A stretch of DNA of 64,000 bases from Thermoanaerobaculia bacterium (GCA_046756565.1 JBHHWO010000003.1:144-64143), one strand, 5' to 3'; shown: positions 11,631 to 64,000, counted from the first letter of the stretch. The notes: a model not told the origin generated them from the letters alone. Made by a program: numbers and translations.

Positions 11631-11718
11631 CCTGAGCGATTCTTAGCAGGCCCGGATCGACTGAGTCAATGCAACCGATGCAGGCTACTATTGGGGCACA
11701 AGGTCGCTGGAGGTATCG

Positions 11719-13857: not shown

Positions 13858-13878
13858 GTTTCTAATAGGAACGACGCG

Positions 13879-14322: not shown

Positions 14323-14325
14323 GCG

Positions 14326-14763: not shown

Positions 14764-14772
14764 GAGAGCAGA

Positions 14773-15489: not shown

Positions 15490-15728
15490 GGCCGCGCCAG
15501 CGAGAAACGGCTCCAAAGCGAGAGCCGGCCTCGCGGGCGAGGTTCGAAGCCGTCCGTAAGTGAGGACAAACCGGCTGAAACCGGCCTGGGTCTAGCGCCA
15601 TGCAACATGACTGTGAACTCGCGTTCCGAGCCAGGGCTCGGACCGAAGCAGCCAATCCCGTGGCACGGCGCTTGCTCTGTCAAGATGGCGTGTAGGGTGA
15701 AGTGATATCGATCGAAAGGAGACTCGAA

Positions 15729-16904: not shown

Positions 16905-16930
16905 TCCGACCCACCGACCGAGTCTTCTAT

Positions 16931-16964
16931 GAGAGGCCGCCGAAAGGCGGCCTCTCTTTCATCT
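16931..16964. terminator. Bidirectional Rho-independent terminator between the convergent TPR gene and ftsX
   Basis: GAGAGGCCGCC-GAAA-GGCGGCCTCTC perfect 11-bp stem followed by TTTCATCT. Confidence 0.8.
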
Positions 16965-16975
16965 CGCATCGGCGT

Positions 16976-41977: not shown

Positions 41978-42562
41978 CTACCTTTTCCTCAGTTCGACCA
42001 GGATCTGTTTCGCCACCGCCTTGAGCGTGTCGAATACGCCAACGCCCTGGGGAGCTACCGCTTCGAACGTCGGCTCGCGCTTGTAGTTGAGCATCCGGTA
42101 CATCTCGTCGACCGGCATGGCGTTGGGAAGGTCGCGTTTGTTGAACTGCAATGCCGACGGAACCGTCTTCAAGTCGAAGCCGTGATCGCGCAGGTTCGCT
42201 TCCAGATTGCGAATCGACTCGACGTTCGCCTCCATGCGCTCACGCTGGCTGTCGGCCACGAAGATCACGCCGTCCACGCCTTTGAGGATGAGCTTCCGAC
42301 TGGCGTCGTAGAAGACCTGGCCGGGCACGGTATAGAGGTGGAAGCGAGTCGTAAAACCGCGGATCGACCCGAGATCGAGCGGCAGGAAATCGAAAAACAG
42401 CGTTCGGTCCGCCTCGGTAGCAAGTGAGATCATCTTGCCCTTCCGGTCGGGCGCGGTCTTGTTGTAGATGTACTGGAGGTTGGTCGTTTTGCCGCCCAGG
42501 CCGGGGCCGTAGTAGACGATCTTGCAGTTGATCTCCTTGGCCGCATAGTTGATGAACGTCAT
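41978..42562 (-). CDS. mglA: Ras-like small GTPase MglA
   Basis: [36 protein letters not shown]...[33 protein letters not shown]... is near-identical in pattern to Myxococcus MglA. Confidence 0.9.
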
Positions 42563-42608
42563 CGCTGATCTCTGTGCCTATCGACTACCTGTGGAACGAC
42601 TCGCAGAC

Positions 42609-43088
42609 CTATTCGCTGAACAGGGCGTCGATGTCCTCGTCGGTGATCTCCGAGAACGGGCTGGGCTCCGAAACGCCCTCCTCCGGGAGCGCCTTGGCGT
42701 CCATCTCATCGAAGACCTTCTTGAGCTCCACGCTCGCTCGCTTGACTCTCAAACGCACCAGCCCCAGAGACGAGCGCTCGTCGAAGATCACCAGGAGAAT
42801 CGCACGGCGCGCGACGATCGAGATATGGATGTGGTCCCGCTGCCCCTCGTGGAAGAGGACGGAGAACTCCCGTTCACCGATCAGCTTGGCCAGGCCGTCG
42901 GTCGCGGCGACGTTGCCAGCGGTCAGCGAGGCCAGGGAGGTCGAATCGAACTCTTCGGTCTCGCCCGCGGCCGCAATGTGCTGGCCGTTCTTGTCGATCA
43001 GGAAGACCGCCTTGGCGTTGGCGTCCTGGCGGAGCCTGCGCAGGGCGTCCTCTAGACGCCGAAACTCTGTTTCGAAAACTACTTCCAT
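42609..43088 (-). CDS. mglB: Roadblock/LC7-domain GTPase-activating protein MglB
   Basis: Roadblock fold sequence upstream of mglA (...AVFLIDKNGQHIAAAG...); acidic C-terminal tail. Confidence 0.8.
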   Translation of the reverse strand: MEVVFETEFRRLEDALRRLRQDANAKAVFLIDKNGQHIAAAGETEEFDSTSLASLTAGNVAATDGLAKLIGEREFSVLFHEGQRDHIHISIVARRAILLVIFDERSSLGLVRLRVKRASVELKKVFDEMDAKALPEEGVSEPSPFSEITDEDIDALFSE

Positions 43089-43206
43089 GATCGGGACTTA
43101 CCTGGATGGACTCTATTCCCCCGGCACCAAAGGCGCCGCGAAAAATATCACAACCCCCACGGTTTACTCCAAACACTGATGGTACGGTATTTAGCCCTGT
43201 CTGAGA

Positions 43207-49671: not shown

Positions 49672-51555
49672 ATGGGCTTCGAAAGTCTTGCCGCTAGCGC
49701 TTTGCGCCAGGTGCGCATACGAAATCAAGGTGGTCTCGCAGTGACACTCCCGATCGAAGAAGTCCTCGAGGGCAAGTACGAGATCCTCGAGAAGATCGGT
49801 GAGGGCGGAATCGGATCCGTCTACAAGGTCCGCCACCGGTTGCTCGACGAGATCCGGGTCATCAAGGTCCTGCGGCCCCAAGTCGCGGCCAAGGAAGATC
49901 ATCAGGAGCGCTTCCTTCACGAAGCCCGCATGGCGATTCGGCTCAAGCACCCGAACATCGCCCAACTCCACGATTTTTCGATCTCCGACGAAGGCACCGC
50001 CTTCATCGTCATGGAGTTCATCGACGGCATCGCACTCGACGCCCTACTCAAGGCCTCCGGCCCGCCCAGCCTCGATCTGACGCTGGAGATGGCGCAGCAG
50101 TCATTGCGGGCACTGGCCTATCTCCACTCTCATGAGCTGGTTCACCGCGATGTGTCGCCGGACAACTTGATGCTGACCACGTCGTTCGACGGCACCGCGC
50201 GCATCAAGCTGATCGACCTGGGCATCGCCAAGAACCTGGCCGAGGAAAGCAACCTGACACAGACGGGCGTTTTCCTGGGCAAGGTCCGTTACTGTTCACC
50301 CGAGCAGTTCTCGAGCGCGGAAGATCAGACCCGGCCGCTCGATCATCGCAGCGACATCTACTCATTCGGACTACTGCTTTACGAGCTCCTGACCGGTATC
50401 TACCCGTTCAAGGGCGAGACCTTTGCCGAGCTGGCGGGCTGCCATCTGTTCCAGCCGCCGATCGGTTTCGATCAGACGGATCCCGAGGGCAAGGTGCCCG
50501 ATGAGTTGCGCGAGGTCGTGCTGCGATCCATCGCAAAGGATCCCGAGGACCGCTTCTCTACCGCCGAAGAGTTCGTTCAGGAGCTGCTTCCGTTTCGCGA
50601 CACCGAGAGCTCGATCGAGGACGAGCTCAATCGCACGGTCGAGCGAACGACCTCAGCGATCGCTCTCAAGAACTACACTCGCCCGGGTTCCACCCAGGAC
50701 CGTCTGAACGCCGAGTTCGGGCTCGGCACCACGGCCGCGCCCAAGCCGCTGACCGAGGCTCGGCAGCCAGAAGCAGCTGGCGCAAGAGGTACGGCCTCGG
50801 CGGTATTGCCTACAGCCGGCGGCCCGGCCAAGAAATGGTGGTGGATCGCCGGAGGCGGCGCAGCCGTGGTCCTGGCGGGTCTCGGCATCTGGCTCGGTAG
50901 CTCCGTTCTGGGCCGAGACTCGGGCGACACGGCGGGTGACGGCTCCTCCGAGGCGCAGGCTATAGAGATCGCGCAGACCGAGAGATTCACTCTTCCCGAG
51001 GTTGACCCCGACCGGGTGGCTCTCGACGCCGCGCTGCCTCCTCCGCCCACCGGAGACGAAGAGAAAGCGGCCCCTCAGGTCGAACCTGGAACTGATGCTC
51101 CCGGTCCCTCCCAGCTCGGACCGGACCCGGACCCGGAAGACGGACGCCGGCCTCCGCTCGGTGACCCTCAGTTCCAGGGGAGACCCCCACCCCACGGTGG
51201 GCGTCCGCCGCCGGGGAGTCGGCCGGGAGAGCTCGGTCCACCACCGATCGGCCGGACTTCGGAGATCTATGAGACCAGCGTGGGGGTGGTCGCTCCGGTG
51301 CTGGAGATGCTGCCCGAGCCGATGTATCCGGACGGCAAGCGGCCCAAGAACCGTCTCACGGTGGACGTCGCGGTGCTGGTCGACGAGGAAGGCAAGGTGC
51401 TCACCGCCCGGGTCGAGGCCGGCGCAGGGTTTCGGCGCCGCTTTCGCGACGCCGCCATCGAGACCGCGAAGCGATCGAGATTCCGCCCCGCGGTTCGCAA
51501 CGGCGTCGCAGGCCGCATGTGGACCAGTCTCAAGATCGTATTCGAGACCGAGTAG
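49672..51555 (+). CDS. Ser/Thr protein kinase with TM helix, Pro-rich periplasmic linker and C-terminal TonB_C-like domain
   Basis: Kinase motifs IGEGGIGSVYKV, VIKVL, HRDVSPDNLML, DLGIAK, SPEQ. TM WWWIAGGGAAVVLAGLGIWLG. PPxxG-rich spacer. C-terminus ...PEPMYPDGKRPKNRLTVDVAVLVDEEGKVLTARVE...AAIETAKRSRFRPAVRNGV... resembles TonB_C. Confidence 0.8.
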   Translation: MGFESLAASALRQVRIRNQGGLAVTLPIEEVLEGKYEILEKIGEGGIGSVYKVRHRLLDEIRVIKVLRPQVAAKEDHQERFLHEARMAIRLKHPNIAQLHDFSISDEGTAFIVMEFIDGIALDALLKASGPPSLDLTLEMAQQSLRALAYLHSHELVHRDVSPDNLMLTTSFDGTARIKLIDLGIAKNLAEESNLTQTGVFLGKVRYCSPEQFSSAEDQTRPLDHRSDIYSFGLLLYELLTGIYPFKGETFAELAGCHLFQPPIGFDQTDPEGKVPDELREVVLRSIAKDPEDRFSTAEEFVQELLPFRDTESSIEDELNRTVERTTSAIALKNYTRPGSTQDRLNAEFGLGTTAAPKPLTEARQPEAAGARGTASAVLPTAGGPAKKWWWIAGGGAAVVLAGLGIWLGSSVLGRDSGDTAGDGSSEAQAIEIAQTERFTLPEVDPDRVALDAALPPPPTGDEEKAAPQVEPGTDAPGPSQLGPDPDPEDGRRPPLGDPQFQGRPPPHGGRPPPGSRPGELGPPPIGRTSEIYETSVGVVAPVLEMLPEPMYPDGKRPKNRLTVDVAVLVDEEGKVLTARVEAGAGFRRRFRDAAIETAKRSRFRPAVRNGVAGRMWTSLKIVFETE

Positions 51556-51585: not shown

Positions 51586-53811
51586 TTACAGGATCTCGAC
51601 TTCGACCGGGCCTTTGAGCCGCATCATGCAGGCCAGTCGGCACGGGCCGGCTTCGAGCTCACAGATCTCCTCCAGCGTCTCACGCTCCTGATCCGAAAGC
51701 TCGTCCACGTTTTCGGCGCCCGACAACACGCGCACGGGGTCGCTGCCGCAGATTCCGGAATGACACTCCGCGGTGATCTGCACGCCCGCGGCTTCGGCCG
51801 CCTCGCAGACGTTGGACCCGGCGGCAACCGGCACCGACTCGCCGGTACCCTTGAAGGTAGCGGTCGGGCCCTCGGCCGCGGCGCTCCCGTCCGCTTCCCG
51901 GGCAGCGCCAACGGCCGGCGGTGACTCGGCAAGGCCCTCGTCCAGAACCTCCTCGGCGCCCCGGCTGAACAGGAAGGACTGCTGTCCCATGCGGATCCGG
52001 TCTCCGTGCTCCAGGAGGCGCGCGGCGCGGACTTTCAAATAGGTGCCGTTGACGCTTTTGAGGTCCTTGATCAGGATCGCTCCGCCCTCGGCGGACACCG
52101 CGAGATGGCGCCGCGAGAGCGTCGTGTCCTCGGCGTCGAGGATCCCCCCGGGCGCCTCGCGTCCGAAGATCATCGGCTTGTCTCCGAGCTCGTAGCGTCC
52201 CTCCTCGGCGCCCGCTGCGTCGTAGTGAATCACCGCCATTTCGCCGCCATCGATCGAGAACAGCAGGAACTGGCGGCCGACACGCACCAAGTCCCGGTCT
52301 CCGACCTCGATCTTCTTGGCAGCTTGCGCGCGCAGGAAAACGCCCGTGGCTCCACCGTCGTCGCGCACGAAATAGCCTTCCTCGCTGTGCGCCACCGATC
52401 CGTGGACATTCGACAGTGTCGAGTCGTCGGCAAACGCCAGATCACAGCCGGAGCGCCCGATGGTCACGACTCCTTTGACGGGCAGCGGATACTCGTCCTC
52501 CTGGACACCCGTGGGAAGCACGCGAATCAAGAGGGGCCCAGCGGAGACCTCTTCGCGGCCGGGCTCCAGGCTCTCCTCGGGCGGGCCGCTAGGCTCCGCC
52601 GACCCGGCCGGCGTCCCGGCGACGGCGGATTCGGAGACCTCGAGCTCCGCCTCCTGGATCTCGACGTCGATCTGCTCTTTGCCGTCGATCCGCTGCCGGA
52701 TCACCTGGGCCACTCGCACGCCGTCACGCAGGGCCGACTTGATGTTGCCGCGATGCTTGACCTCCTTGAAGCCGGCAGGGTCGGCGTCGAAATCCTCGGT
52801 CTCGAAGTAGGCCTGGCTCAGCAGATCTCCCACCAGGTACAAGTTGTTCTGGCAGGTCTCGAGGCACCGATTGACCACCATGCGCTTCCTGTTCTTGGGC
52901 CCGCCGTTGACCATGTGAACCCCGAACGAGTTGAGGAGGGCTTCCGGAATGTCCTCGCCGATGCAGGCGATGACCTGCGGCTTGGGAAACTCCAGCAGAG
53001 TGAGCTCGCCGGGCCGTCCGTCCATCCGGCGCCGGTCGGTGCGAATCGCCAGGTACTCCTCTCGGTCGTCGCCGGTCAAGACGGCCACCGGCTCGCTGCG
53101 CCGGTAGTAGCGGATGTTGCCGTTGCCGACATAGGCGGCGAAAAACGCATCCGCCAGGGCCTTGGAGATCCTCGGCATCTTGTCGCCGCGGTAGGACCAG
53201 TAGACCGAAGTGCGGTCTCGGGCCTCGCTCTTGGCCTCGGAAATGGCGATCACCGCCTCGGCGGCCGAGGTTCCACCTCCGATAACGCAGGCGGGCTGCC
53301 CGACGAATCGCTCGGCCTCGGAAAGCTTGTAGGCGATGCCGTCGGTATTGCCGGGGATATCGAAGCGACGCGGTACGCCGCGGCCCAGAGCCAGGACCAC
53401 ATGACGGGCTTCGTAATGCTCGCTTTGGCGTGTCCGGTGGTTCCACAGTGTCGCGCGATAGCCGCCGTTTTCGAGTAGCTCGAGCTCCGAGAGCTCGGCG
53501 CCCACCCGGACCGGAACCTCGTGCTCTCGATAGAGCTCTTTCCATTGCTCGCACATGTCGTCTTTGTCGATCGGATCAAAATGGAGACAGGAGACCAGGT
53601 TCCCTCCCACCGGGAAGCACATCTGATCGCCGCCACCGAAGCTCGGCAGGATCAGCTTGTCCTTGGCGTAGTCGCGAATGCGCTTCATCAGGTCGTCGTA
53701 GTCGACCACCAGAACGCCGATGCCGAGCTCGACCGCGCGGAAGGCCGTGGCCGTACCGGCCGGGCCACCGCCGGCGATGAGAACGTCCACCGTTTTCGAA
53801 GACCCAGCCAT
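51586..53811 (-). CDS. Multidomain protein: two-dinucleotide-binding FAD/NAD(P) oxidoreductase, two FHA domains, C-terminal ferredoxin-like (2Fe-2S-type) domain
   Basis: VLIAGGGPAGTA and VIGGGTSAAEA Rossmann motifs. FHA 1: TIGRSGCDLAF...VFLR...VGRQFLLF. FHA 2: IFGRE...LSRRHLAV...IKDLKSVNGTYLKV...GDRIRMGQQSFLF. C-terminus ...AECHSGICGSD...CRLAC.... ATG at 53811 (4 bp after the upstream gene's stop); the track extends to 53889. Confidence 0.7.
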   Translation of the reverse strand: MAGSSKTVDVLIAGGGPAGTATAFRAVELGIGVLVVDYDDLMKRIRDYAKDKLILPSFGGGDQMCFPVGGNLVSCLHFDPIDKDDMCEQWKELYREHEVPVRVGAELSELELLENGGYRATLWNHRTRQSEHYEARHVVLALGRGVPRRFDIPGNTDGIAYKLSEAERFVGQPACVIGGGTSAAEAVIAISEAKSEARDRTSVYWSYRGDKMPRISKALADAFFAAYVGNGNIRYYRRSEPVAVLTGDDREEYLAIRTDRRRMDGRPGELTLLEFPKPQVIACIGEDIPEALLNSFGVHMVNGGPKNRKRMVVNRCLETCQNNLYLVGDLLSQAYFETEDFDADPAGFKEVKHRGNIKSALRDGVRVAQVIRQRIDGKEQIDVEIQEAELEVSESAVAGTPAGSAEPSGPPEESLEPGREEVSAGPLLIRVLPTGVQEDEYPLPVKGVVTIGRSGCDLAFADDSTLSNVHGSVAHSEEGYFVRDDGGATGVFLRAQAAKKIEVGDRDLVRVGRQFLLFSIDGGEMAVIHYDAAGAEEGRYELGDKPMIFGREAPGGILDAEDTTLSRRHLAVSAEGGAILIKDLKSVNGTYLKVRAARLLEHGDRIRMGQQSFLFSRGAEEVLDEGLAESPPAVGAAREADGSAAAEGPTATFKGTGESVPVAAGSNVCEAAEAAGVQITAECHSGICGSDPVRVLSGAENVDELSDQERETLEEICELEAGPCRLACMMRLKGPVEVEIL

Positions 53812-53815
53812 CTCT

Positions 53816-54670
53816 TCAACCTTCCTCGACCAAACGTCCCTCGAGGCGGCCGAAGACGACCCGCTCTCCGACCGGAAGCTCGACTTCACCCTCCGTCTGG
53901 GCGCCCGCCACGAACGTGTGGTTGCGGCTGCCTTCGTCGCGCACCAGCACCTTGTCGCCCGTCACGGTCACTACCGCGTGACGGCGAGAGACGTCCGGGA
54001 CGTTCAGGCGCACTCGGGCGTCCTTGGTGCGACCGACGAGGTTTTCGCCCTCGTCGAGCTGGAAGCGCTGGACTCGGCCCGCCATCTGGAGCTCCAGAAA
54101 CAGGCGGCGGCCGGGCGCACCCGGCTGCGCAGGCCTGCTTGCGCTCGCGCTCGCCTCGGCCAGGATCTCGGGAATCGGCACGACGACCTTCTCGACACGA
54201 GTACCGCCGTCGTCCGCCAGCTCCTTGGACGCGGCCGGCTTCTTTTCTGCCAGCTCGTCCTCGGACCGCTTCTCCTCGGCTCCGTCGTCGCGCAGGGCCG
54301 CCGGCAGAATTGGGATCTCGCCGTCCGTTTGCGTCTTGTCGACGGGAGGGATATCGATGGTGTCGAACTCACCGCCTTCGGTATCGAGAGCCTGAAAGAT
54401 AAACCTCTCGCTACCGCCGAAGCAGACCATGCTGAGCGGACCGATCGGCTCCGGCCGCTCGAGGCGCACGCCGTCCACTTCGGTGCCGTTCAGGCTTCCG
54501 AGGTCCTCGATCAGATACCTCTCGCTGTCGGTATCGAACGCAATCCGGGCGTGCTCGGTCGACACCACCGAAGCCTGGATGCACACCGTGCTCTCGGCCG
54601 AGCGCCCGATCGTGGCCTCGGCGCCGATCTCGAACTCACCGTGCTCGCGTGATATCAGTTTTGCCTTCAT
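53816..54670 (-). CDS. Tandem FHA-domain protein
   Basis: FHA 1: ...ATIGRSAESTVCI...VSTEHARIAF...YLIEDLGSLNGTEVDGVRL.... FHA 2: ...LVGRTKDARVRLNVPDVSRRHAVVTV..VLVRDEGSRNHTFV.... ATG at 54670 overlaps the upstream stop by 4 bp. Confidence 0.75.
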   Translation of the reverse strand: MKAKLISREHGEFEIGAEATIGRSAESTVCIQASVVSTEHARIAFDTDSERYLIEDLGSLNGTEVDGVRLERPEPIGPLSMVCFGGSERFIFQALDTEGGEFDTIDIPPVDKTQTDGEIPILPAALRDDGAEEKRSEDELAEKKPAASKELADDGGTRVEKVVVPIPEILAEASASASRPAQPGAPGRRLFLELQMAGRVQRFQLDEGENLVGRTKDARVRLNVPDVSRRHAVVTVTGDKVLVRDEGSRNHTFVAGAQTEGEVELPVGERVVFGRLEGRLVEEG

Positions 54671-56247
54671 GGTGCTTCGTCCAAGTACAAGAGTAGCTCC
54701 GACCGGCGACTCTTGTTGGGGTGGAACAGGTGGCACGTGACACAGCGATCCGACGCCAGGCGAGCGGCATGGCACCGCCGGCAGGAGTCGATCGCCGGCA
54801 GGTTCTGGATCGACGCGTTATCGAGGCTCGTATCCGGAGGGTCTTCGGCTTCGAGCTCGTCTTCGATCGGGATGCGGTCGTGGCAATCCAGGCAGCGCGC
54901 CTGCAGGATGTGCGCGCGATGATCGAACTCCGCCCGCCGCAGGGCTCGCTGGTCCTTCTGGACACGGCCGATGGTGGCGTCCTCGACCCGGTGACACTGC
55001 CTGCAGGGCGTCGTCAGCTCTTCGACCAGAAGCTCGATCGAGACCACCTCGTCTTCCGAGAGGTCGGTGCTCTTATCGCCCAGGGCCAGCTCGAAGACCG
55101 TCTCGTCGAGCGCCGCGAACGGCTCTTCCACCTCGCGCGCGAGCTTTCCGAGGAGATCCTCGATCGCGGCCAGCTCGGCCTGAATCTCTTGCTCCGGCCG
55201 GCCCCGCAACCCGATCGCCTGCTCCTCGAGGGCGCCGATGGCCTCTCTATAGAGCGCTCGCAACTCATGGGGCTCGGTGTTCGGCGAGGTCTCGAGGAGA
55301 TCGGCCAAACCCGCGCTCGGATAGAGCATCTGGCGCAGCATGCGCAGGTTCTCCAGAATCCACGGATCTCGGTGGTGGACCGGCCCCTTCACGACCAGGG
55401 AACCGCGGCGGCGATACTCGTTGGGGTCGGTGAAATACGCCCAGCGGATGCCCGCGCCCTGGTCGGCGATGATCTGCTCGAGTGTAGCCACGCCTGGTGC
55501 TCCAGCGCCGGTGCGGATCGGTAGCCCCGGAGTCGAGACCGTCGACGTCAGGTGGCAGGAGTCGCAGTGCCGATCGAAGTCGATCAGCTCGAAGCTCCGG
55601 CCATCCGGTTTGGCGTTATGGCAGTAAAGGCAGGATCTTTCGACGTCGGTGAGCTTCTGGCGCTTCATCACTTCGCGTACGTGGTGAACGTGGGCAAATG
55701 ACAGGCTCTCGTTATCTGCGATCTGCTCGGCGACGAAGTCGAACTCGGGGTGCTCGCTCGTGAAGGAATCGAAATGGCATCGCTCGCAGCGCTGGTCGGC
55801 GACACGAGTGATCGAGGCATCCCGGCCCTCGTGCTCGAGGTGACAGGTGAAGCACGGCACCTCGTGCTCTCCCGGCACCAGGCGGCGGAAATCGTCGGAC
55901 CGGAAGATGTAGTGAGCAGCGAAGTTGTACACACCCAGCTCATCCCCGAATTTTTCGTGACAGCTCGAACAGAGCTCGTCACTCGCCTGTCGCGCTTCCG
56001 GATCGTGGCAGCTCGCGCACTCACTCTCGAAGGCGGCGTGATTGGACGACAGTGGACCATTTGAAGACAAGGAGCCACGGCCCATGAACTCGTCGACCGC
56101 TATGACGCCGAGTACCAACCCGATCAGAGCCGCTCCCAGGAGCAGCATCTTGTTGCGCGCCGGTCGCGGCGGGTACGCATTGGCGACGGGAAGCTCGCTT
56201 TCGCCGAAGCTCCCTTTCTGGCCGGTCCACTTGTCCTTGGGGCTCAT
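54667..56247 (-). CDS. Membrane-anchored decaheme c-type cytochrome
   Basis: Ten CxxCH motifs (CASCH, CSSCH, CFTCH, CERCH, CLYCH, CDSCH, CRQCH, CLDCH, CRRCH, CVTCH). N-terminal signal anchor MLLLGAALIGLVLGVIAV. ATG at 56247 with a GGAG RBS. The track extension to 56415 overlaps the upstream gene. Confidence 0.8.
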   Translation of the reverse strand: MSPKDKWTGQKGSFGESELPVANAYPPRPARNKMLLLGAALIGLVLGVIAVDEFMGRGSLSSNGPLSSNHAAFESECASCHDPEARQASDELCSSCHEKFGDELGVYNFAAHYIFRSDDFRRLVPGEHEVPCFTCHLEHEGRDASITRVADQRCERCHFDSFTSEHPEFDFVAEQIADNESLSFAHVHHVREVMKRQKLTDVERSCLYCHNAKPDGRSFELIDFDRHCDSCHLTSTVSTPGLPIRTGAGAPGVATLEQIIADQGAGIRWAYFTDPNEYRRRGSLVVKGPVHHRDPWILENLRMLRQMLYPSAGLADLLETSPNTEPHELRALYREAIGALEEQAIGLRGRPEQEIQAELAAIEDLLGKLAREVEEPFAALDETVFELALGDKSTDLSEDEVVSIELLVEELTTPCRQCHRVEDATIGRVQKDQRALRRAEFDHRAHILQARCLDCHDRIPIEDELEAEDPPDTSLDNASIQNLPAIDSCRRCHAARLASDRCVTCHLFHPNKSRRSELLLYLDEAP

Positions 56248-56260
56248 GAGCTCAGCTCCG

Positions 56261-57103
56261 CTAGTAGCGGAGCACCCCCCAAAGATGGAGCCCGAGAAAG
56301 ACGAGCAGCAGAAGCGACGTCGGAACGTGCAGCCAGAGCCAGGCACGCAGGGCCTGTTGCAGTGTGTAGTGCGCGTCGATCTCGAACTTGGCCCGGTAGA
56401 GCTCTTCCAGCTCATCGAGCTTTTCGGCCTCTTCCTCGGGCAGCTTCTCGCGCAGATAGCGGACCGATCGGAGTCTCTCCCGGATACCGCCGGTGATGTC
56501 GAAGAAATAGACCCACCGACGGTTCGGCGCTTGGAGCTTCGTCGCCATCGCGCTGTCGTGCAGATCCCGGATCTCGGTGGCGCTCGAGGCGGCCAGCTCT
56601 GCGGCCCGGGCGCGAATGTCGTCTACGAGCTCCGGAATCCTCTCGTAGAGCACCTCGGTCGACAGACCCGAGGTCATCAGGCGTGGGATCCAGCGCTGCA
56701 TCCCTCGCCCCGCGAGACCGCCGATCACCGTCCAGATGCTCAAGCCGAGCAGCCAGATGGTCACCCATCCCTCGGGCATTCCGAAACCACTGTGAACAAG
56801 AACCAGGAGCAGGAAGAGCGCGCCCCCATACACGTGGAGCACGAGCCAGAGGCGCGACCGGCCGAGGCCGAGGCGGCTGAAGAACGACATCGCCCGCTTG
56901 CGGGCGCTGAGCGCGGTGACCAAGAGCAGCAGCGCCGCGGCGGACCAGCCGAAGATGAGGCTGAGGGTTCCGCCCGGCGCCGCGTCCCACCAGATCGTTC
57001 CGGCGGCATACGCCGACACGACCGCCAGGCACAGGAGCACAAAGCCCCAGACGCCACCGAGTGGAGCTCCCGGCACCGAGAGACCGCTACCCGGTTCGGC
57101 CAT
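56261..57103 (-). CDS. Integral membrane protein with ~5 TM helices and four TM-embedded His (putative di-heme b-type cytochrome)
   Basis: ATG at 57103 in a TGATG junction with the upstream gene. TM helices contain ...LVLHVYGG..., ...LVHSGFG..., ...LWLHVPT..., ...LGLHLWG.... The 355-aa N-terminal extension in the track (to 58168) is an out-of-frame shadow of the upstream gene. Confidence 0.6.
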   Translation of the reverse strand: MAEPGSGLSVPGAPLGGVWGFVLLCLAVVSAYAAGTIWWDAAPGGTLSLIFGWSAAALLLLVTALSARKRAMSFFSRLGLGRSRLWLVLHVYGGALFLLLVLVHSGFGMPEGWVTIWLLGLSIWTVIGGLAGRGMQRWIPRLMTSGLSTEVLYERIPELVDDIRARAAELAASSATEIRDLHDSAMATKLQAPNRRWVYFFDITGGIRERLRSVRYLREKLPEEEAEKLDELEELYRAKFEIDAHYTLQQALRAWLWLHVPTSLLLLVFLGLHLWGVLRY

Positions 57104-58746
57104 CAGGCATCCCCCGTCAAGAGCAATTGAAACTCGTCCAGCGAGCCGATCCGAAACGCGCAGCCCTGCGGGCAGTTGCTGACGCAGGCCGGTCCGTGCC
57201 CCGTGTCCTCGCACAGGTCGCACTTCGAGGCGACCGCCCGGTTCCGTCCCCGCAGGCCGGTCGGAACCATGTCGTCGGGCCACACGGTGGCGGTCTCGTG
57301 CATCACGATGGCGTCGTAGGGGCAGTTGTTGGCGCAATTCGAGCATCCGATGCATACATCCTCGTCGACCGCCACGACTTCGCCGACACCGGCGCGGTGA
57401 ATCGCACCTGTCGGGCAGCCCACCAGGCATACCGGATCGCGACAGTGGTAGCAGGATTTGGCGACCAGCAGATTGCCGTACTTGTTGCCCTCGCGCACGA
57501 AGCGCGGCCTGCCGCCGTGTGTGTCCGCGCAGGCCCGCACGCAGTCGTCGCAACGGGTGCAGGTGTTGAGGTCGATCGCCAGGATGCTGTTGCCCTGGAC
57601 AAGGCCGCTGCGCAGCGCCACTTCGGTGAATTCGGCAAAGCCCACATTGCGGCGCGAGAAACCCGCTTCGCGAATTCGATCGGTGGCGCTCTGCCAGAGC
57701 TGGTCCTCGATCTCCGGCTGGCTCTGAATCAGCTGCTCGACCACCGTCCGGGGGATCTTGATCAGCTCCGCATACTCCACTGACAGTGCAGTCGACTGCC
57801 ATTCGTCCAGGGCCTCGACCACGAACTCGACTTCGCCCAGGGTCATTCCCTTCGACAGATAGGAGACCGCGATCTCGCCGTCGGCGTAGCCCTGCATGAG
57901 CTTGACGAAGCCCGAGCGAACGAGATAAAGGCAGTCGGCGGCCTCCCCGGCCTTGACGATCTCCTCCTCCGGCTCGCACGACACCAGCTCGACATTCTCC
58001 TTGAGCGCGTCGACAAAGACGTCGGTGCAGCCCTGGAAGAGCGGCGTGTTCTTGAGCTGAACCGCCAGCGAGCGCTCCCGGTACAGCTCGTCGAGCTCGG
58101 CCTTGAGCGCCTTCGACTTGCGCTTCATCAGCCGGAGCGCCGCCACCTTGATCTGGACCAGGCGGCACTCGCCGGCGGTCCTGGCGGTCACCGACTGCGG
58201 CCAGCCGCTCATCGAGCCGATCTCACCGATCAGCTCACCCTTGCCCAGGCGCGCCGCTGCGCCCTCAGGCAGATCGAAGTCCATGGTGGCGAGCAGCGTG
58301 ATCCGGCTCGGATCGACCCGAGTCGCCCTGCGCATCAGGACAGTGCCGCCGGCCACGGTGTCGGTCGGCGATTCGGCCGGCGAAGCTCCGATCACCGTGC
58401 GTGAAAGATCGAAGATCGGCCGGGCTCCAGTGGCTTCCGGCCCGACGCCCTGAACGAAGACTTCGACTTCGCCCTCGAGAACGTAAAACGCCAGATCGAT
58501 GTAGGTCCCCTCTTCGAAGAGAACCGAGCCGTTCGCCCAGCGCGCGATCGAGATATCGGGGCTGATCTTCTCGAGGAACCTGTCGTCGAAATCCGAGAAC
58601 AGCTCAATCGCCTTGAGCTCCTCGACCGACGGCTTGTCCGAGATCTCTGCCAGGCCGCTCTCGTCGTCGTACGAGGACCAGCGATCCCGGTACTGCTCCA
58701 ACCGGCGAAACTCGGTCTTGCCCGGCCCGAGGACCTCGTCGCTCAT
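57103..58746 (-). CDS. Fusion of two cyclic-nucleotide-binding (CAP-effector) domains with an NrfC/DmsB-like 4x[4Fe-4S] ferredoxin module
   Basis: CNB 1: ...ELFSDFDDRFLEKI...FEEGTYIDLAFYVLEGEVEV...GELIGEIG...RSVTARTAGEC.... CNB 2: ...LFQGCTDVFVDAL...GEAADCLYLVRSGFVKL...GEVEF.... FeS: CTRCDDCVRAC, CYHCRDPVCLVGCP, CIGCSNCANNCP, CDLCEDTGHGPACVSNCP. No Tat or Sec signal. Confidence 0.8.
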   Translation of the reverse strand: MSDEVLGPGKTEFRRLEQYRDRWSSYDDESGLAEISDKPSVEELKAIELFSDFDDRFLEKISPDISIARWANGSVLFEEGTYIDLAFYVLEGEVEVFVQGVGPEATGARPIFDLSRTVIGASPAESPTDTVAGGTVLMRRATRVDPSRITLLATMDFDLPEGAAARLGKGELIGEIGSMSGWPQSVTARTAGECRLVQIKVAALRLMKRKSKALKAELDELYRERSLAVQLKNTPLFQGCTDVFVDALKENVELVSCEPEEEIVKAGEAADCLYLVRSGFVKLMQGYADGEIAVSYLSKGMTLGEVEFVVEALDEWQSTALSVEYAELIKIPRTVVEQLIQSQPEIEDQLWQSATDRIREAGFSRRNVGFAEFTEVALRSGLVQGNSILAIDLNTCTRCDDCVRACADTHGGRPRFVREGNKYGNLLVAKSCYHCRDPVCLVGCPTGAIHRAGVGEVVAVDEDVCIGCSNCANNCPYDAIVMHETATVWPDDMVPTGLRGRNRAVASKCDLCEDTGHGPACVSNCPQGCAFRIGSLDEFQLLLTGDA

Positions 58747-60914
58747 CGCGATCCTCCTGTCGATCCACCGGAACCGTCAGCGCGGCCGGCCGAGACATTG
58801 GTCGGGCTGACCAGTTTGTAAAGCTCCCGGAGCCGTTTCTGAACCGCCAGGAGAAGCTCCTCGATCGACGCTTCGCCCACCTTGGGAAGCGGTTTGAAAT
58901 CCACGCCCCCCGATGCAATTCCCGCCGCCGAGCCGACGGTGGCCCCCGGGGTCAGCGGTCGCGGCGTCGGCGGGCGGAGTACCCACTCTTCCGAGCGGCG
59001 CTGCTCGGCGAACGTCGTCGTCGACCGAACCGATCCCGAGCTTTCACTCGAGCTCGCACTCTGCCCACGACCGCCCCCGGAAGAGCCCGCCGGCAGCGTC
59101 GCCACGCGCACGTCGGGTACCGGGCCCCGGGACGCGATCACGGCCCTCGCCGACGACGAGATCTCGCCGTCCGCCAGCCGGTGCTGCCAGTGGCGCACTT
59201 CGTTCATGCCGCGCACATAGTCGAAGTCCGACCCGGACGGATGCCCTGCCGACAGCAGGCGCCGATCGGTGACGTAGTGGCAGCCGGTGCAGGTCTCGGC
59301 CCGCGTCTTCGACTGGCGCAGATCCTTCTTGCCCAAACCGAGCGCCGCCAGGTGCCCGGGCCGCTGCCGGCCCAATTCTTTGCCGGCTTCGTTCTTGTGC
59401 GGCTCGAGCCAGTCCGCCGCGGGCCCGTGGCAGCTCTCGCAACCGACCCCGTCGAGCACCTCCCGCGACTCCTTGCCCGAGAGAATCGTGCCGTGGCAAT
59501 CCATGCACACCGCGCGACCGGTGGTCATTTGCGATGTCTTGACGCCATAGAGGCGCGCGATCCTGAGGACGTCGGGATCGCCGTCGAAGAACGGATTCAC
59601 CGAGCGGGAGTGCTCATGACCGAACCACCATTGGTTCTGCTCGGTGTGACAGCCGGCGCAATTGACCGGACCGATGGTCCTACGCTGCGAAGCCGGCCGG
59701 ATACGGATCTTGAACCCTCCCGCGACCCCCGCCGCCCCGGTCGATGCTGCTCGGGCGCCCGGCTCCGCAGAGGCGCCGCCGCTCGAGGCGGGCACGGTCG
59801 AGCCGGGAGAGCTTCCTTCGCTCGGCGGAGTCCGATCTCGCACACCGGAAGCACCGCCACCCGCGGCCGGGGTCCCGTCGGCCGCGGCGACCTCGAAGTC
59901 TTCCTCGGGCTCGATTCCACGAACCAGGTCATCGAGAGATGCGAGCTGCGATGCGTCGGCAGCGCCCAGAAAGCTCCTCGTCGCGCGCGCGATCGTGTCG
60001 GCGGCAGCGAGGAGAGACGCCTCGTTGCCGGGCACCGTGCGCACAGCCTTGACCGCGGCCAGCATCTCATCGACCTGAGAGATCCCGGCTGCGCGGCTGA
60101 CCGCTCGCAACTCGGACACCGCGCTTCGCACCCTGCGGCTCATCGCTTTCGAATAAATGCCGTCGACGGTCGCCTTGGCCATTCCGCGCAGGCTGTACTC
60201 GAGATCGAGCGCCCGGCCGACGACGTACATAACGCGCTTGCGCGACATGGAACGTTCGCGATTGACCGGATCGGTACGGTCGCGAAAGGATCTCAGGAAG
60301 TTGTGTCGAATCTGACCCTGGCTCCACTCGACCAGCTCGAAGCCGGCGCTGCCGGTCGTGTGTCCCCCTTCGTTCACGAGACGTTCGAGCGGTACCGAGT
60401 GGCAGCTGAAGCAGTTCGCGGCGACCGGATACAGGTCGGACGGCCGCCGCATTCCGGCGTTGCGGCTGTCCGCGATGCGCTGGCGGCGGTGCGCTGCCGA
60501 TTCTCCCGTATGGTCCTCGGCCGCACCGTAGTCGTTGTGGACGTCGAGGTAGTCCGCCCCGGCGCCGTGACACGACTCGCAAGAGACGCCCGAGACCACT
60601 CGGATCTGCCCGCTCTGGATGACCGGCGTGTAGTGGCAGCTGAAGCAGAGGCTGTCGCGCTTGATCAGGCGAAAGCCCATCTTTTTGGCGATCGTCTCCG
60701 CCTGCTCCTTCTTGTGAAGTGTCTTGAATCCGGTCGCGTGCGGAGTTGTCTTCCAGACCACCGCCTCGTGGATGTGGCATTCACCGCATTTCTCCGCCGT
60801 AACCACCTTGTTCGGGTCGATCTTGGCGTACTCGAAGAAGGGCGGTTGGGCCCGCAGGGGCGCGCACAGCGCCAGGCCGATCAGCAACACCCCCGCTACG
60901 ACTGGTCGTTTCAC
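58743..60914 (-). CDS. Secreted octaheme c-type cytochrome with Ser/Gly-rich low-complexity segments
   Basis: Signal peptide MKRPVVAGVLLIGLALCAPLRAQ. Eight CxxCH motifs (CGECH, CFSCH, CESCH, CFSCH, CAGCH, CMDCH, CESCH, CTGCH). Confidence 0.8.
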   Translation of the reverse strand: MKRPVVAGVLLIGLALCAPLRAQPPFFEYAKIDPNKVVTAEKCGECHIHEAVVWKTTPHATGFKTLHKKEQAETIAKKMGFRLIKRDSLCFSCHYTPVIQSGQIRVVSGVSCESCHGAGADYLDVHNDYGAAEDHTGESAAHRRQRIADSRNAGMRRPSDLYPVAANCFSCHSVPLERLVNEGGHTTGSAGFELVEWSQGQIRHNFLRSFRDRTDPVNRERSMSRKRVMYVVGRALDLEYSLRGMAKATVDGIYSKAMSRRVRSAVSELRAVSRAAGISQVDEMLAAVKAVRTVPGNEASLLAAADTIARATRSFLGAADASQLASLDDLVRGIEPEEDFEVAAADGTPAAGGGASGVRDRTPPSEGSSPGSTVPASSGGASAEPGARAASTGAAGVAGGFKIRIRPASQRRTIGPVNCAGCHTEQNQWWFGHEHSRSVNPFFDGDPDVLRIARLYGVKTSQMTTGRAVCMDCHGTILSGKESREVLDGVGCESCHGPAADWLEPHKNEAGKELGRQRPGHLAALGLGKKDLRQSKTRAETCTGCHYVTDRRLLSAGHPSGSDFDYVRGMNEVRHWQHRLADGEISSSARAVIASRGPVPDVRVATLPAGSSGGGRGQSASSSESSGSVRSTTTFAEQRRSEEWVLRPPTPRPLTPGATVGSAAGIASGGVDFKPLPKVGEASIEELLLAVQKRLRELYKLVSPTNVSAGRADGSGGSTGGSR

Positions 60915-62410
60915 TAGAACTTCAAGACCAGTTCAAAGCGTCCGCCAAAGCCGGTCAGGTCGTCCGAGGCGCCGAGGCCCTCGATGTAGCTCGCGAAGCC
61001 GTCCCAGACCAGGACCACGTGTTTTCCCTTGGCCATCTGGTAGCGAACGGTCGCGGCAGCCTGGTTAGCCACTCCGGAGGCCGTTCCGACCCGAAGACCG
61101 AGTTCGCCGAGCAGCTGGCGGCGAGCCAAGGGACCGTAGAACTTCTGGTAGCCGATCGCGCCGCCGGCGACGTTCCGCGCCCGGCTCGACAGCGGCGCCC
61201 CGTAGTTACCCAGGCCGACCGCGGCAAACGAGACTCCCGCGGGACCCAGCGGCCCGCCCGAAGCCGGCCCACTCGCCGCCGCCGAGTACTCGTCGAGCGC
61301 CAGGAAAGTCGTGAAATAGAACAGATCGAAGCTGTGGTGCGGGGTCCAGGACACCTCGCTGAAGAGCAGCGTGCCGTCGGTGGCAAACGCAGTCTCCTCG
61401 TCCAGGGCAAGCGAGCTCAGGAGTCGAAACGACGTATTGATTTTCCCGATGCGCTGAACCGCACTCACACCGACGCCGACAAGATCGCCGCTCGAGTCGC
61501 TACCGGTCACGTAGGCGAGATCGACATCGATGGTCGAGGTCCGGACATCGGTCGAGGTCAATACCGCAAACAGCTCGGCGTCGCCGTCTTCCACATTGTT
61601 GCGATGCAGGTCGCTCGCCCCGAAGAACAAGGTCGCTCGAAAGTTCGACGTGTTCTTGGGCAACAGGGTGTTGCGAGTGATCCCGACGCCATCTATCGAG
61701 TCATTGATCAGCATGCCTTCCTGGAAGATCAACAGCTGCCGGCCGATCGAGAAACCGACGTCGGTGCGTCCGAAGTCCTGCTTGTCGATCCCCGGAAAAA
61801 TCTCGCCGAACTCACCCTCGAAGTACAGACTCTGGATCTCGGCGTTGAGCTCATCGCGGAAGGCGTCGTCGTCGCCAAACAGCGCCTGGAACTCGGGGCT
61901 CCGCGAGCTGGGCTCGAGGATGTAGCTGGTGAACCGGCCGTCCTGGTCGAAATTGCGGAAACCCAGCACCAGCCGCTCGGTTCCGGTGAGCTGCAAGTTG
62001 GCGAACAGATCGAGCCGATTGGCCCACTCGGTGATCCGGAAGTCGTCGACCTCGAAACTCTGGATCGCGCTGCGCAGCGTGCCGAAAACGATCAAGGTCG
62101 GCTGCCACACGGCGCCGGTCGGAAGCTTGAACCCCGGATTGATGTTGCCGGTGCCCAGATACGGATTGCCCAGCTCGAGCAGAAGCCGTGGCCGCTCGGG
62201 AAGATCCTCGAGCAGCGGAATGTACTCGTCGGTAACCGCGCTCGAGTCATGGGCGCCGTCGTCGCTTTCGCCGTGCGCCTCCCCGACCTCGGGGTCTGAA
62301 GCGACTTCCACCGCGACCGCCGCATGGGCCGGTACACCGGCTCCGGTGGCAAGCAACAGAATCAGACCACCGGCCGCCGCGAGGAGTCCGAGGTCTCTCC
62401 TGCGAGTCAT
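60914..62410 (-). CDS. Outer-membrane beta-barrel protein (porin-like) encoded inside the cytochrome operon
   Basis: Signal peptide ...LLAAAGGLILLLATGAGVPAHA. Alternating amphipathic beta-strand pattern throughout. C-terminus ...GGRFELVLKF ends in the aromatic residue typical of OMP terminal strands. Confidence 0.6.
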   Translation of the reverse strand: MTRRRDLGLLAAAGGLILLLATGAGVPAHAAVAVEVASDPEVGEAHGESDDGAHDSSAVTDEYIPLLEDLPERPRLLLELGNPYLGTGNINPGFKLPTGAVWQPTLIVFGTLRSAIQSFEVDDFRITEWANRLDLFANLQLTGTERLVLGFRNFDQDGRFTSYILEPSSRSPEFQALFGDDDAFRDELNAEIQSLYFEGEFGEIFPGIDKQDFGRTDVGFSIGRQLLIFQEGMLINDSIDGVGITRNTLLPKNTSNFRATLFFGASDLHRNNVEDGDAELFAVLTSTDVRTSTIDVDLAYVTGSDSSGDLVGVGVSAVQRIGKINTSFRLLSSLALDEETAFATDGTLLFSEVSWTPHHSFDLFYFTTFLALDEYSAAASGPASGGPLGPAGVSFAAVGLGNYGAPLSSRARNVAGGAIGYQKFYGPLARRQLLGELGLRVGTASGVANQAAATVRYQMAKGKHVVLVWDGFASYIEGLGASDDLTGFGGRFELVLKF

Positions 62411-64000
62411 CGTCCCGCCTCCCCGGTCGCGGCGCCTCCGGTGCCACCGGCCGTCCGGACTTCCCCGACCCGGGCCTCGATCTCCTGCTGCCAGAGCACC
62501 TGATGGCCGGCGACCACCCGCTCGGCAATCTGTTTGGTCGTCAGGCCATAGTCGAAACCGACGATCCTGATTCGGTTGACCAGGTTGACCGGCAGCATTC
62601 CGGCCACCAGCTCGACCCGGATCTTGTAGGTCCCCGAACCGCTGAGCTGGGACGGCTTCACCTTGTACTTCGGGTAGCGCCGGCCGGCGGGCTCGATATT
62701 CTGCTTGTGCTTGCGCGCCCCGCGCGGCCGGCCGGTGAGAATCGTCGAGGTCGTCGACGGCCGCAGAAACGGCAGCGGATCGGGCGAGAAGTTGAGTGCC
62801 AGAATCTGCTCGCGCTCGCCGCCGCGCACCATCCGGGTCAAGAACCGGCCCTGGAGGCTGAACAGCTGCTTGTCGAGCGGCAGCTCGCCGTTGTGGACGT
62901 AGAGCGAGTGGTTGTCGCGCAGATCGCCGTTGGGATCGAGATCGCCGGACCGGAAAACGACGTTGCCGTCGGGGCCGGTTACAGTCACCCGCAGGAATAC
63001 CACTCGCTCGGCGTCGAATCCCGTCGGCACGCCGTGCCCGTCGGTGCCATTGGCGACCTCGACCTGAAACACCAGGCCCTTCTCGGGATCGGCCTTCAGA
63101 ATCTCGACGCCCATCAAACGGTAGGCCACGCGGAGAATATGACGGCGCTGGCGATTGGCCTCGGCCAGAAGCTCGATGTTGTCGGTCAGGATGTCGCGAG
63201 CGTCGTAGCGGTCATCGGCCGAGCTCCAGTGCTCGGGAAACTCGTAGTCCTCGGCCACATTTGTCTCGAACTCGTCCGTGCCCCAGCCGGCCTCGTGGTC
63301 GTAAGTCAGCCACTGCCGGATAGTTGCCAGCTCCGAGGCGGCGGTGTTGTGCGGAAAGATTCCGGGATGGATGACCGAGTGGTCAGGCCCGATAAACATG
63401 TGGTTGGTGATCCGTCGTGTCCGCGTCGGCTTGCCGCCGACCACGGCGGCAGGGCCCTCCGGGTAGCCCGAGTCCACACCCGGCTCCGTGCCCATGTGGC
63501 AGTCCTGGCAGGAGACGCCCTTCCTGGCCGCCGGCGAGGTCTTGAACTCGCTGAACGCCTCTTCCAACCGGAAGCCGTTGACCAGATTCACATCGTGACA
63601 GGTCGCGCAAAAGCCCGAAGTGGTGAGCTGTAGGAATTTCTCTGCCTTTCCGTGGATCGCTCGCCCAGCCTTGCCCCGCTCGGGATTCACCCGGTAATCG
63701 GAGCTCTCGATGACGCGCGCGACCTCGACGTTGCCCTCGGGACCGTAGACGGGATCGAAAAGGTCACCGCGCTCGATCGCCAGGCGACCGGAGAGCTTGC
63801 CGTAGTTGCGGTTGACGCGATGGCAGACGACGCAGGTCACGCCCTCGCGCGAGGTCGGGTGCCGGTCCATGTTGGTCATGAACTCGGGCTCCTCGAGATT
63901 CATCCCTACCGGATCGTGGCAGCGGATGCAGAAGTCTCCGTTGGTGCCGTTGGTGATGACCAGGACCGCCCCCTGCATCGCGTTGAAGATCGGGCTCATC
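62407..64000 (-). CDS. Multiheme c-type cytochrome, partial (N-terminus lies beyond the window end)
   Basis: At least four CxxCH motifs in the visible part (CIRCH, CVVCH, CATCH, CQDCH). The frame is open to the window edge. Stop overlaps the OMP start (ATGA-type, 4 bp). Confidence 0.7.
   Translation of the reverse strand, partial: MSPIFNAMQGAVLVITNGTNGDFCIRCHDPVGMNLEEPEFMTNMDRHPTSREGVTCVVCHRVNRNYGKLSGRLAIERGDLFDPVYGPEGNVEVARVIESSDYRVNPERGKAGRAIHGKAEKFLQLTTSGFCATCHDVNLVNGFRLEEAFSEFKTSPAARKGVSCQDCHMGTEPGVDSGYPEGPAAVVGGKPTRTRRITNHMFIGPDHSVIHPGIFPHNTAASELATIRQWLTYDHEAGWGTDEFETNVAEDYEFPEHWSSADDRYDARDILTDNIELLAEANRQRRHILRVAYRLMGVEILKADPEKGLVFQVEVANGTDGHGVPTGFDAERVVFLRVTVTGPDGNVVFRSGDLDPNGDLRDNHSLYVHNGELPLDKQLFSLQGRFLTRMVRGGEREQILALNFSPDPLPFLRPSTTSTILTGRPRGARKHKQNIEPAGRRYPKYKVKPSQLSGSGTYKIRVELVAGMLPVNLVNRIRIVGFDYGLTTKQIAERVVAGHQVLWQQEIEARVGEVRTAGGTGGAATGEAGR

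Follow-up and report, generated by a model that had tools for sequence, protein, structure and literature searches.

Gene and domain architecture

The window analysed here is a stretch of 64,000 nucleotides from a Thermoanaerobaculia bacterium (GCA_046756565.1, JBHHWO010000003.1:144-64143). The gene of interest, referred to below as the target gene, lies on its minus strand at 51586..53811 and is the last of eight co-directional genes. Its predicted product of 741 amino acids (aa) joins, in one chain, a thioredoxin reductase (TrxR)-like flavoprotein, two successive FHA domains and a C-terminal ferredoxin-like (Fer2) domain. A single polypeptide with these four domains was proposed in a first-pass annotation of the DNA, which left the strand unstated, and the domain content is borne out by Pfam, PDB and AlphaFold2 (AF2). 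The surrounding open reading frame (ORF) extends over 51586..53889, minus strand, and translation from the ATG at 53811 gives the 741-aa protein. This ATG is located 4 nt past the stop codon of the upstream FHA gene and is preceded by the Shine-Dalgarno-like sequence GAGGAAGG. Alignments of homologues to the target begin at residue 4-9, and position 53811 is therefore the likely true start.

Pfam-A assigns residues 9-331 to Pyr_redox_2 (E = 1.6e-16), with a further match to Pyr_redox_3 (E = 3.5e-15). The AF2 model, for which 68 homologues served as input, has a mean predicted local distance difference test (pLDDT) score of 83.7. It contains a TrxR-like domain, then two beta-sandwiches directly following each other (residues 427-521 and 524-616), and last a small alpha/beta domain at residues 650-740; the segments that connect these units, 392-410 and 624-644, are disordered. 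The predicted template modelling (pTM) score is only 0.54, so the relative placement of the domains is unreliable. Both the Pfam scan, which matches FHA in two stretches, and the beta-sandwiches of the model assign the middle region to FHA, as the first reading of the sequence had it. An identical protein (P0001, 100% identity) is recorded as 'MAG: FAD-dependent oxidoreductase [Thermoanaerobaculia bacterium]'. NCBIfam yielded only sub-threshold domain matches for the target and no curated family spanning the whole protein, and PDB matched it domain by domain, with no whole-protein relative. Literature searches likewise found no description of a flavoprotein-FHA-ferredoxin family, in agreement with the initial view that the architecture does not belong to a described family; one paper matched on 'FHA' (PMC10734482) deals with filamentous haemagglutinin and has no bearing on it.

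Family size and distribution

A word-indexed homologue search returned 877 matches. The best 120 of the 877 are full-length proteins of 729-804 aa with 54-74% identity, and they carry the same Pfam set as the target under generic names only. Residue conservation was counted over these 120 homologues for the FHA and Fe-S sites, over 68 homologues for the FAD and NAD(P)H motifs and over 58 genomic loci for the third cluster ligand discussed below. An exhaustive search of representatives at 50% identity gave 118 sequences at E ≤1e-30, many of which are fragments. A gene-fusion or assembly artefact was considered for the target gene and is ruled out by the independent full-length homologues, which number more than 120.

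A scan of GTDB species genomes located 73 loci, all in metagenome-assembled genomes (MAGs). Their hosts are Acidobacteriota, KSB1, Bacteroidota, Calditrichia, Gemmatimonadota, Planctomycetota, Binatia, Polyangiaceae and other Deltaproteobacteria, the Bacteroidota being represented by Rhodothermales, Ignavibacteria, Chlorobi-like, Cytophagia and Chitinophagales members. The architecture of the target is thus that of a large family spread over many phyla and lacking functional annotation, and is not peculiar to one contig.

N-terminal flavoprotein domain

Residues 1-385 (52657..53811, minus strand) form a predicted FAD/NAD(P)H two-dinucleotide-binding domain with the motifs GGGPAG and GGGTSAAE and a GD motif at residues 328-329. 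The two Rossmann motifs of the first-pass annotation are present as VLIAGGGPAGTA (residues 10-21) and CVIGGGTSAAEA (residues 175-186), and the FAD glycine motif, the NAD(P)H glycine motif and the GD motif are invariant in the 68 homologues. The best Foldseek matches in PDB are ferredoxin-NADP+ reductases (FNRs) of the TrxR type (6gar, 3ab1 and 3lzw) and Bdr/YpdA (7apr and 7a76), at E ~5e-19 and ~18% identity. Many TrxR structures are also matched, and together with the invariant GGGPAG and GGGTSAAE motifs these place the domain within the TrxR fold.

Among solved proteins, Bdr 7a76 is the closest in sequence (residues 9-236, E = 1.2e-8), and its NAD(P)H domain has a YRG...P.I...NG.I stretch in common with the target. 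The scores for both curated families nevertheless fall well below their cut-offs: 51.6 bits against 339.9 for TIGR04018 (YpdA; E = 5.9e-14) and 21.7 bits against 343 for TIGR01292 (TrxR). Residues 1-390 contain no CxxC motif, and alignment with TrxR 4zn0 puts the target Y-KLSE opposite the TrxR YCAIC. The Cys of the YpdA motif GGGPCG is not kept either, the target and its family having GGGPAG at this position. These sequence features place the N-terminal domain in the TrxR-like superfamily, among members without CxxC. The lack of CxxC makes hydride-to-one-electron chemistry with an Fe-S partner more plausible than reduction of a disulfide substrate. The term 'flavin reductase' used in the first reading was loose, the closest relatives being Bdr/YpdA and TrxR-type FNR.

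FHA domains

FHA domain 1 occupies residues 425-521 (52249..52539, minus strand) and is degenerate; FHA domain 2 occupies residues 524-616 (51964..52242, minus strand), with the Pfam FHA match at 549-609, and is canonical. Pfam FHA matches the target with E = 1.4e-15 and 57.9 bits, against a gathering score of 20.7. The initial description of two FHA domains, the second near-canonical, is in accord with Pfam, the AF2 beta-sandwiches and conservation over 120 homologues. In FHA domain 2, G550, R551, S566, R567, R568, D583 and N588 are found in 120/120 homologues and S586 in 119/120, and the position of H569 is His in 79 and Gln in 41. This domain therefore holds, as judged from residue conservation, the full residue set for phospho-threonine (pThr) binding. 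In FHA domain 1, G452 is conserved in 100%, R453 in 86%, S467 in 65% and H470 in 99% of homologues, and the canonical Asn is replaced by Thr or Ser (T489 in the target). Sequence matches include the FHA domains of OdhI, GarA, FhaB and TagH. The Pfam family Yop-YscD_cpl also matches the target (E = 2.7e-11) as well as the upstream two-FHA protein.

C-terminal ferredoxin-like domain

Residues 649-741 (51589..51867, minus strand) form a plant-type 2Fe-2S ferredoxin-like domain, to which Pfam Fer2 aligns at residues 654-732 with 26.6 bits against a gathering score of 21. Its best solved relative is ferredoxin 9i2a (E = 2.1e-8), the CREGECGTC...RLAC of which aligns to CHSGICGSD...RLAC in the target. 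In this alignment, C683, C688, D691 and C728 fall on the four ligand positions, and all four are invariant in 120 homologues. The Asp noticed earlier at the usual third Cys position is thereby located at a ligand position, and the four-Cys pattern of plant-type ferredoxins, C-x4-C-x2-C...C, is departed from in the target at its third Cys.

Of the 58 genomic loci, 53 encode Asp at the third ligand position and 5 encode Cys. The five Cys-type loci (L048, L050, L051, L067 and L068) form a divergent sister clade from Binatia and Deltaproteobacteria MAGs, with the motif CK[VI]G[LQ]CGLC and 41-45% identity to the target. The same C-x4-C-G-S-D motif occurs in SdhB (1nek_B), a subunit of E. coli succinate dehydrogenase that holds a 2Fe-2S cluster, where the PDB sequence has Cys55, Cys60, Asp63 and Cys75. 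The strict retention of three Cys and one Asp, together with Cys in the sister clade, argues that the Fe-S site is under selection and that a cluster is retained in the target family. This strictly kept Cys3Asp site would be a natural case for studying how Asp tunes 2Fe-2S clusters. C717, invariant in the close set, was considered as a substitute fourth ligand and rejected, as it is absent from the Asp-type loci L023, L025, L030, L036, L038, L040, L042, L043 and L045 and from the Cys-type clade.

Cytochrome operon

The eight co-directional genes that end in the target are closely packed, with junctions of -4, -1, -4, -1, +13, -4 and +4 nt. In 5' to 3' order they encode a multihaem cytochrome, a 498-aa protein, an octahaem cytochrome, a cyclic nucleotide monophosphate (cNMP)-binding protein with Fer4 motifs (cNMP-Fer4), a protein with five transmembrane (TM) helices (5-TM), a decahaem cytochrome, a two-FHA protein and the target.

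Immediately upstream of the target, the two-FHA gene (53816..54670, minus strand) encodes a predicted cytoplasmic protein of 284 aa from the ATG at 54670, with two Pfam FHA matches (E = 2.8e-30), and its start overlaps the decahaem stop by 4 nt. The decahaem cytochrome c (54667..56247, minus strand) has 10 CxxCH motifs and is predicted to be membrane anchored, with a cytoplasmic tail of ~33 aa, one TM helix and a periplasmic haem domain; a PDB search found no sequence relative. The 33-residue tail carries a motif, K-G-x-[FY]-[SG]...LPVA..Y, which is kept across phyla and may be a docking site.

The 5-TM gene (56261..57103, minus strand; 280 aa) was recognised by tblastx conservation. It is masked in ORF lists by a longer out-of-frame ORF (56261..58168), and its product is named 'hypothetical protein ACE5GX_00830' at NCBI. 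Another ORF in this region, of 206 aa at 56412-57032, is a wrong-frame artefact: it is Arg-rich and has no Pfam match, and the real gene is in a different frame. Four His residues of the 5-TM protein, H90 and H104 in TM3 and H259 and H273 in TM5, are invariant (43/43 and 45/45 homologues). The four form two H-x13-H pairs, which are the signature of a transmembrane dihaem b cytochrome, and the 5-TM protein is a putative one. Applied to the sequence, the positive-inside rule puts one His pair close to either face of the membrane and the loop of 120 residues on the cytoplasmic side. It matches Pfam DUF4405 weakly (E = 0.037), and DUF4405 proteins have been demonstrated to bind haem b (PMC11334425).

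The cNMP-Fer4 gene (57103..58746, minus strand) encodes a predicted cytoplasmic protein with one or more cNMP-binding domains and a C-terminal four-cluster [4Fe-4S] 'wire', on the basis of Pfam matches to cNMP_binding (E = 7e-24) and the Fer4 family and of four Cys motifs. Residues 387-538 match four-cluster subunits over their full length, namely HycB3 (7qv7_A, 2.7e-16), NrfC/PsrB, NarH and FdnH. This makeup suggests cyclic-nucleotide control of an electron wire, and we know of no characterised example of a cNMP-binding domain combined with a four-cluster [4Fe-4S] module.

The remaining three genes are the first in the operon. The secreted octahaem cytochrome c (58743..60914, minus strand) has 8 CxxCH motifs behind an N-terminal hydrophobic leader, and its N terminus is c554-like (Pfam Cytochrome_C554, E = 7.8e-24; 1bvb, E = 4.4e-9). 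The 498-aa secreted protein (60914..62410, minus strand) has homologues in 15 loci and no Pfam match; it ends in ...LVLKF and may be an outer-membrane beta-barrel, perhaps the porin of a porin-cytochrome module. The multihaem cytochrome c (62407..63999, minus strand), with at least 4 CxxCH motifs, is conserved in 15 loci, and its 5' end is probably outside the window.

Downstream of the target, in convergent orientation and at a distance of 30 nt, lies a Hanks-type Ser/Thr kinase gene (49672..51555, plus strand; Pfam Pkinase, E = 5.9e-45). The kinase has a TM helix at residues 390-408 and a periplasmic TonB_C domain (E = 1.5e-8). A sensor module of this kind, a TonB_C domain behind a single TM helix, is unusual among Ser/Thr kinases. 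Two other signalling loci in the window are apparently unrelated to the operon: a second Ser/Thr kinase with an N-terminal receiver domain (9318-11642, minus strand) and a Roadblock/LC7 and small-GTPase pair resembling MglB/MglA (41978-43097, minus strand).

Conserved context and fusions

Synteny was assessed by tblastn of the window proteins against the 73 loci, with upstream counts taken from the 40 loci having at least 6.5 kb upstream and downstream counts from the 41 having at least 3 kb downstream. The gene order of the operon recurs in loci across phyla. The two-FHA protein and the decahaem cytochrome are encoded upstream of the target homologue in 34/40 loci and cNMP-Fer4 in 29/40. A Hanks kinase lies within 6 kb downstream in 17/41 loci; in Bacteroidota-type loci it follows directly, on the same strand, after 100-1000 nt. 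The conserved eight-gene operon had escaped the first-pass annotation, as had the size and multi-phylum spread of the family, the sister clade with Cys at the Asp position and the hidden 5-TM protein with its four invariant His.

Some homologues occur in other surroundings. L074 (P0028, a marine TARA MAG, 8333-17293) encodes a homologue with 60% identity, flanked by two metallo-beta-lactamase/PDEase_II-like genes, a pyrroloquinoline quinone (PQQ) beta-propeller and a convergent kinase with an FGE-sulfatase domain; the 12.18-Mb contig of P0028 also encodes a 5-TM protein elsewhere (P0388). At the divergent loci L033, L051 and L067 the core operon is missing, and genes nearby encode proteins of 1300-1800 aa with 9-10 CxxCH motifs. 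Those of L051 and L067, which were scanned against Pfam, contain LVIVD repeats, and hemA is located near L067.

Among distant representatives, P0252/P0391 (Methylomirabilota) and P0267 (1417 aa) are rare single-chain fusions, and a fuller P0252-type member of 1351 aa is present on four contigs. The order in these proteins is three FHA domains, a TM helix, ten CxxCH motifs, a second TM helix, a 2x[4Fe-4S] ferredoxin and a TrxR-like flavoprotein, the last with 33% identity to target residues 7-236. Such 'Rosetta stone' fusions link FHA, decahaem cytochrome, Fe-S module and flavoprotein independently of gene order. The 9-10-haem proteins near the divergent loci and the 5-TM protein of the P0028 genome also count in favour of the conduit proposed below. 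In P0185, seen on one ENA contig only, a Hanks kinase is fused to the C-terminal part of the family, from the last stretch of the FAD domain through the two FHA domains into the beginning of Fer2; it may be a real kinase-reader fusion or an assembly chimera.

Proposed role and alternatives

We see roughly even chances that the target forms the cytoplasmic end, with flavin and iron-sulfur centres, of a multi-subunit electron conduit across the inner membrane, and that it is docked or gated through pThr. What the analysis shows directly is the make-up of the protein and its conserved residues, the operon, the synteny over many phyla and the fusions; bound cofactors, the path and direction in which electrons move, a physical complex and any dependence on phosphorylation are inferred. 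Electrons would pass from NAD(P)H to the FAD of the CxxC-less TrxR-like domain, from FAD to the C-terminal [2Fe-2S] cluster with its Cys3Asp ligation, and from there to the four [4Fe-4S] clusters of the cNMP-binding ferredoxin. The two b haems of the 5-TM protein would carry them across the membrane to the membrane-anchored decahaem cytochrome, and the octahaem cytochrome would pass them on to a probable outer-membrane barrel/cytochrome module. FHA domain 2 and the two-FHA protein would serve to tether the flavoprotein to the membrane complex, or to gate it there, by binding pThr generated by the Hanks kinase, and the cNMP-binding domain would provide a second regulatory input. The simplest candidate for the pThr site would be the Thr-rich juxtamembrane segment of the kinase itself, by analogy with mycobacterial PknB and GarA.

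Outward electron flow is, in our judgement, more likely than the reverse, because inward transfer to NAD(P)+ from typical extracellular donors would be uphill in redox potential and against the membrane potential. A more specific proposal is tentative and, in our judgement, has the balance against it: that the conduit is quinone independent and of an undescribed kind, leading directly from cytoplasmic NAD(P)H through FAD, the Cys3Asp 2Fe-2S site, the four 4Fe-4S clusters, the b haems (two) and the c haems (ten) onward to multihaem cytochromes of the periplasm and outer membrane, and that coupling of the flavoprotein to its membrane part is switched both by Ser/Thr phosphorylation, read by the FHA domains within the enzyme, and by a cyclic nucleotide. 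If true, uncultured Acidobacteriota, FCB-group bacteria, KSB1 and Gemmatimonadota would commonly possess a respiratory or electron-overflow valve gated by phosphorylation.

Several observations weigh against a phospho-gated conduit. FHA domain 1 is degenerate, the FAD and ferredoxin domains lie ~230 residues of FHA sequence apart, and one of the four classical Cys ligands is absent from the ferredoxin-like domain. The kinase adjoins in under half of the loci (17/41), and some homologues are unlinked from cytochrome genes (L074, and L061 and L048, which have no cytochromes nearby). A phospho-acceptor Thr was sought in the decahaem tail and none is conserved, position x of the tail motif varying among T, S, V, F and I. 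Outward flow from NAD(P)H would also dissipate membrane potential, and the conduit would thus be an electron sink rather than a coupling site. The phosphorylation-dependent docking suggested by the first-pass annotation keeps partial support, from the conserved pThr set in FHA domain 2, the adjoining two-FHA gene and the kinase at 17 of the 41 loci, with the degeneracy of FHA domain 1 counting on the other side.

The target could alternatively be a redox sensor or regulator, in which flavin and Fe-S cluster respond to oxidative state or to the NAD(P)H/NAD(P)+ ratio and the FHA domains relay this to the kinase or to phosphorylated components, controlling assembly or activity of the conduit without bulk electron flux. 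The wealth of signalling parts in and near the operon (four FHA domains, a cNMP-binding domain and the nearby kinase) would suit such a function, as would homologues that lie away from cytochromes yet beside a kinase (L074) and the FHA domains between the redox domains, which are awkward for fast intramolecular electron transfer. In the fusions, however, the decahaem polypeptide itself carries Fer4 and a TrxR-like flavoprotein, as would be anticipated for a redox partner; the four-cluster wire and the putative dihaem membrane protein need a cytoplasmic donor or acceptor, and both nucleotide-binding motifs are fully conserved. We regard a sensor without bulk flux as doubtful, though worth serious consideration. 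Less probable again is that the target has the same electron-transfer role but uses its FHA domains as phospho-independent structural adaptors, like YscD/PrgH of type III secretion, the kinase being unrelated or loosely related. The absence of part of the pThr-binding set from FHA domain 1, a kinase in the vicinity at only 17 of 41 loci and the lack of a conserved Thr in the decahaem tail are all compatible with purely structural FHA domains, to which the Yop-YscD_cpl matches of the target (E = 2.7e-11) and the upstream FHA protein also point. Conservation of the pThr set of FHA domain 2 (GR, SRR and S-x-NG) in 119-120 of 120 homologues would be unexpected for a purely structural fold, and in Bacteroidota-type loci the kinase gene lies on the same strand 100-1000 nt downstream; we therefore think this unlikely.

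Very improbable, in our view, is a thiol-disulfide reductase of the TrxR or Bdr type, acting in thiol homeostasis or cytochrome c maturation and carrying a clusterless remnant of a ferredoxin domain. This would fit the sequence proximity of the N-terminal domain to Bdr/YpdA (7a76, E = 1.2e-8; TIGR04018, E = 5.9e-14) and TrxR and the missing classical Cys ligand, but the domain has no CxxC, has GGGPAG instead of the GGGPCG of YpdA and reaches only 51.6 of the 339.9 bits required for YpdA and 21.7 of the 343 required for TrxR. The ferredoxin-like domain itself, with three Cys and an Asp invariant, Cys in the sister clade and SdhB as a precedent for cluster binding, does not resemble a remnant.

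In many uncultured bacteria with multihaem cytochromes that lack the inner-membrane modules of Shewanella and Geobacter, the route of electron entry or exit is unclear, and the operon offers a testable candidate in which every proposed redox step is encoded side by side. How respiratory complexes of bacteria might be controlled post-translationally, through Hanks kinases and FHA readers, is almost unexplored, and an FHA domain within a flavoenzyme would be a clear test case. Should the conduit interpretation be wrong, a large, conserved, multi-phylum protein family without functional annotation would still stand.

Comparison with known systems

The target appears most like a TrxR-type FNR fused to its ferredoxin, and its scores and missing Cys residues exclude it from the TrxR and YpdA families. 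TrxR-type FNRs (Bacillus YumC/FNR1-2 and Chlorobaculum FNR) have the same fold without CxxC, and the target would likewise partner a ferredoxin. It differs from them in its low identity (~18%), in carrying the ferredoxin in cis behind two FHA domains and in an NAD(P)H motif closer to that of YpdA, and it is best regarded as a putative reductase. Bdr/YpdA is the best sequence match and also lacks CxxC, whereas the target lacks the Cys of GGGPCG, has additional FHA and Fer2 domains and scores below the family cut-off. To our knowledge, the host phyla of the target are not known to make bacillithiol. The N-terminal 2Fe-2S domain of E. coli SdhB shares its fold family, that of plant-type ferredoxins, and the C-x4-C-G-S-D motif with the target, but its fourth Cys follows the Asp after 11 residues, compared with 37 (a ferredoxin-like spacing) in the target, and the homology goes no further.

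The Tmc and Hmc complexes of sulfate reducers consist of a periplasmic multihaem cytochrome, a membrane cytochrome b and a cytoplasmic Fe-S protein, with no obvious quinone step. The logic of the operon is alike, in that one gene set would move electrons across the membrane. It differs in having a HycB/NrfC-like four-cluster Fe-S protein with a cNMP-binding domain, a DUF4405-like 5-TM protein, an added flavoprotein-ferredoxin and an FHA/kinase component, and in occurring in other phyla; no homology to the HdrD/CCG-type TmcB was detected in the operon. GarA/OdhI-PknG and the type VI secretion system (T6SS) pair Fha-PpkA are control modules of FHA domains and Hanks kinases. What the target locus shares with them is a canonical FHA domain whose gene neighbours that of a membrane Hanks kinase. 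In the target, by contrast, the FHA domain is inside a redox enzyme rather than in a small adaptor or secretion component.

The only literature link that we found is to Gallionellaceae. For Ferrigenium straubiae, a preprint of May 2026 describes a nonahaem cytochrome that is anchored in the membrane and has an FHA domain in the cytosol; its gene lies beside those of a 5-TM protein and a cytosolic [4Fe-4S] protein. The preprint notes that FHA had previously been unreported with multihaem cytochromes and leaves the function open (10.64898/2026.01.22.701106). A Gallionellaceae pangenome table also lists a 'Forkhead-associated protein' with 10 CXXCH motifs in 27 genomes (PMC9900912). Neither source describes a flavoprotein-FHA-ferredoxin gene. 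In the Gallionellaceae NHC cluster the FHA domain is fused to the cytochrome, and its likeness to the window proteins is by description, not by sequence. All parts of the system described here are of known kinds, and their combination, like the system itself, is new. The genomic context probably recasts an odd fusion protein as the cytoplasmic module of an undescribed transmembrane cytochrome system with phospho-signalling.

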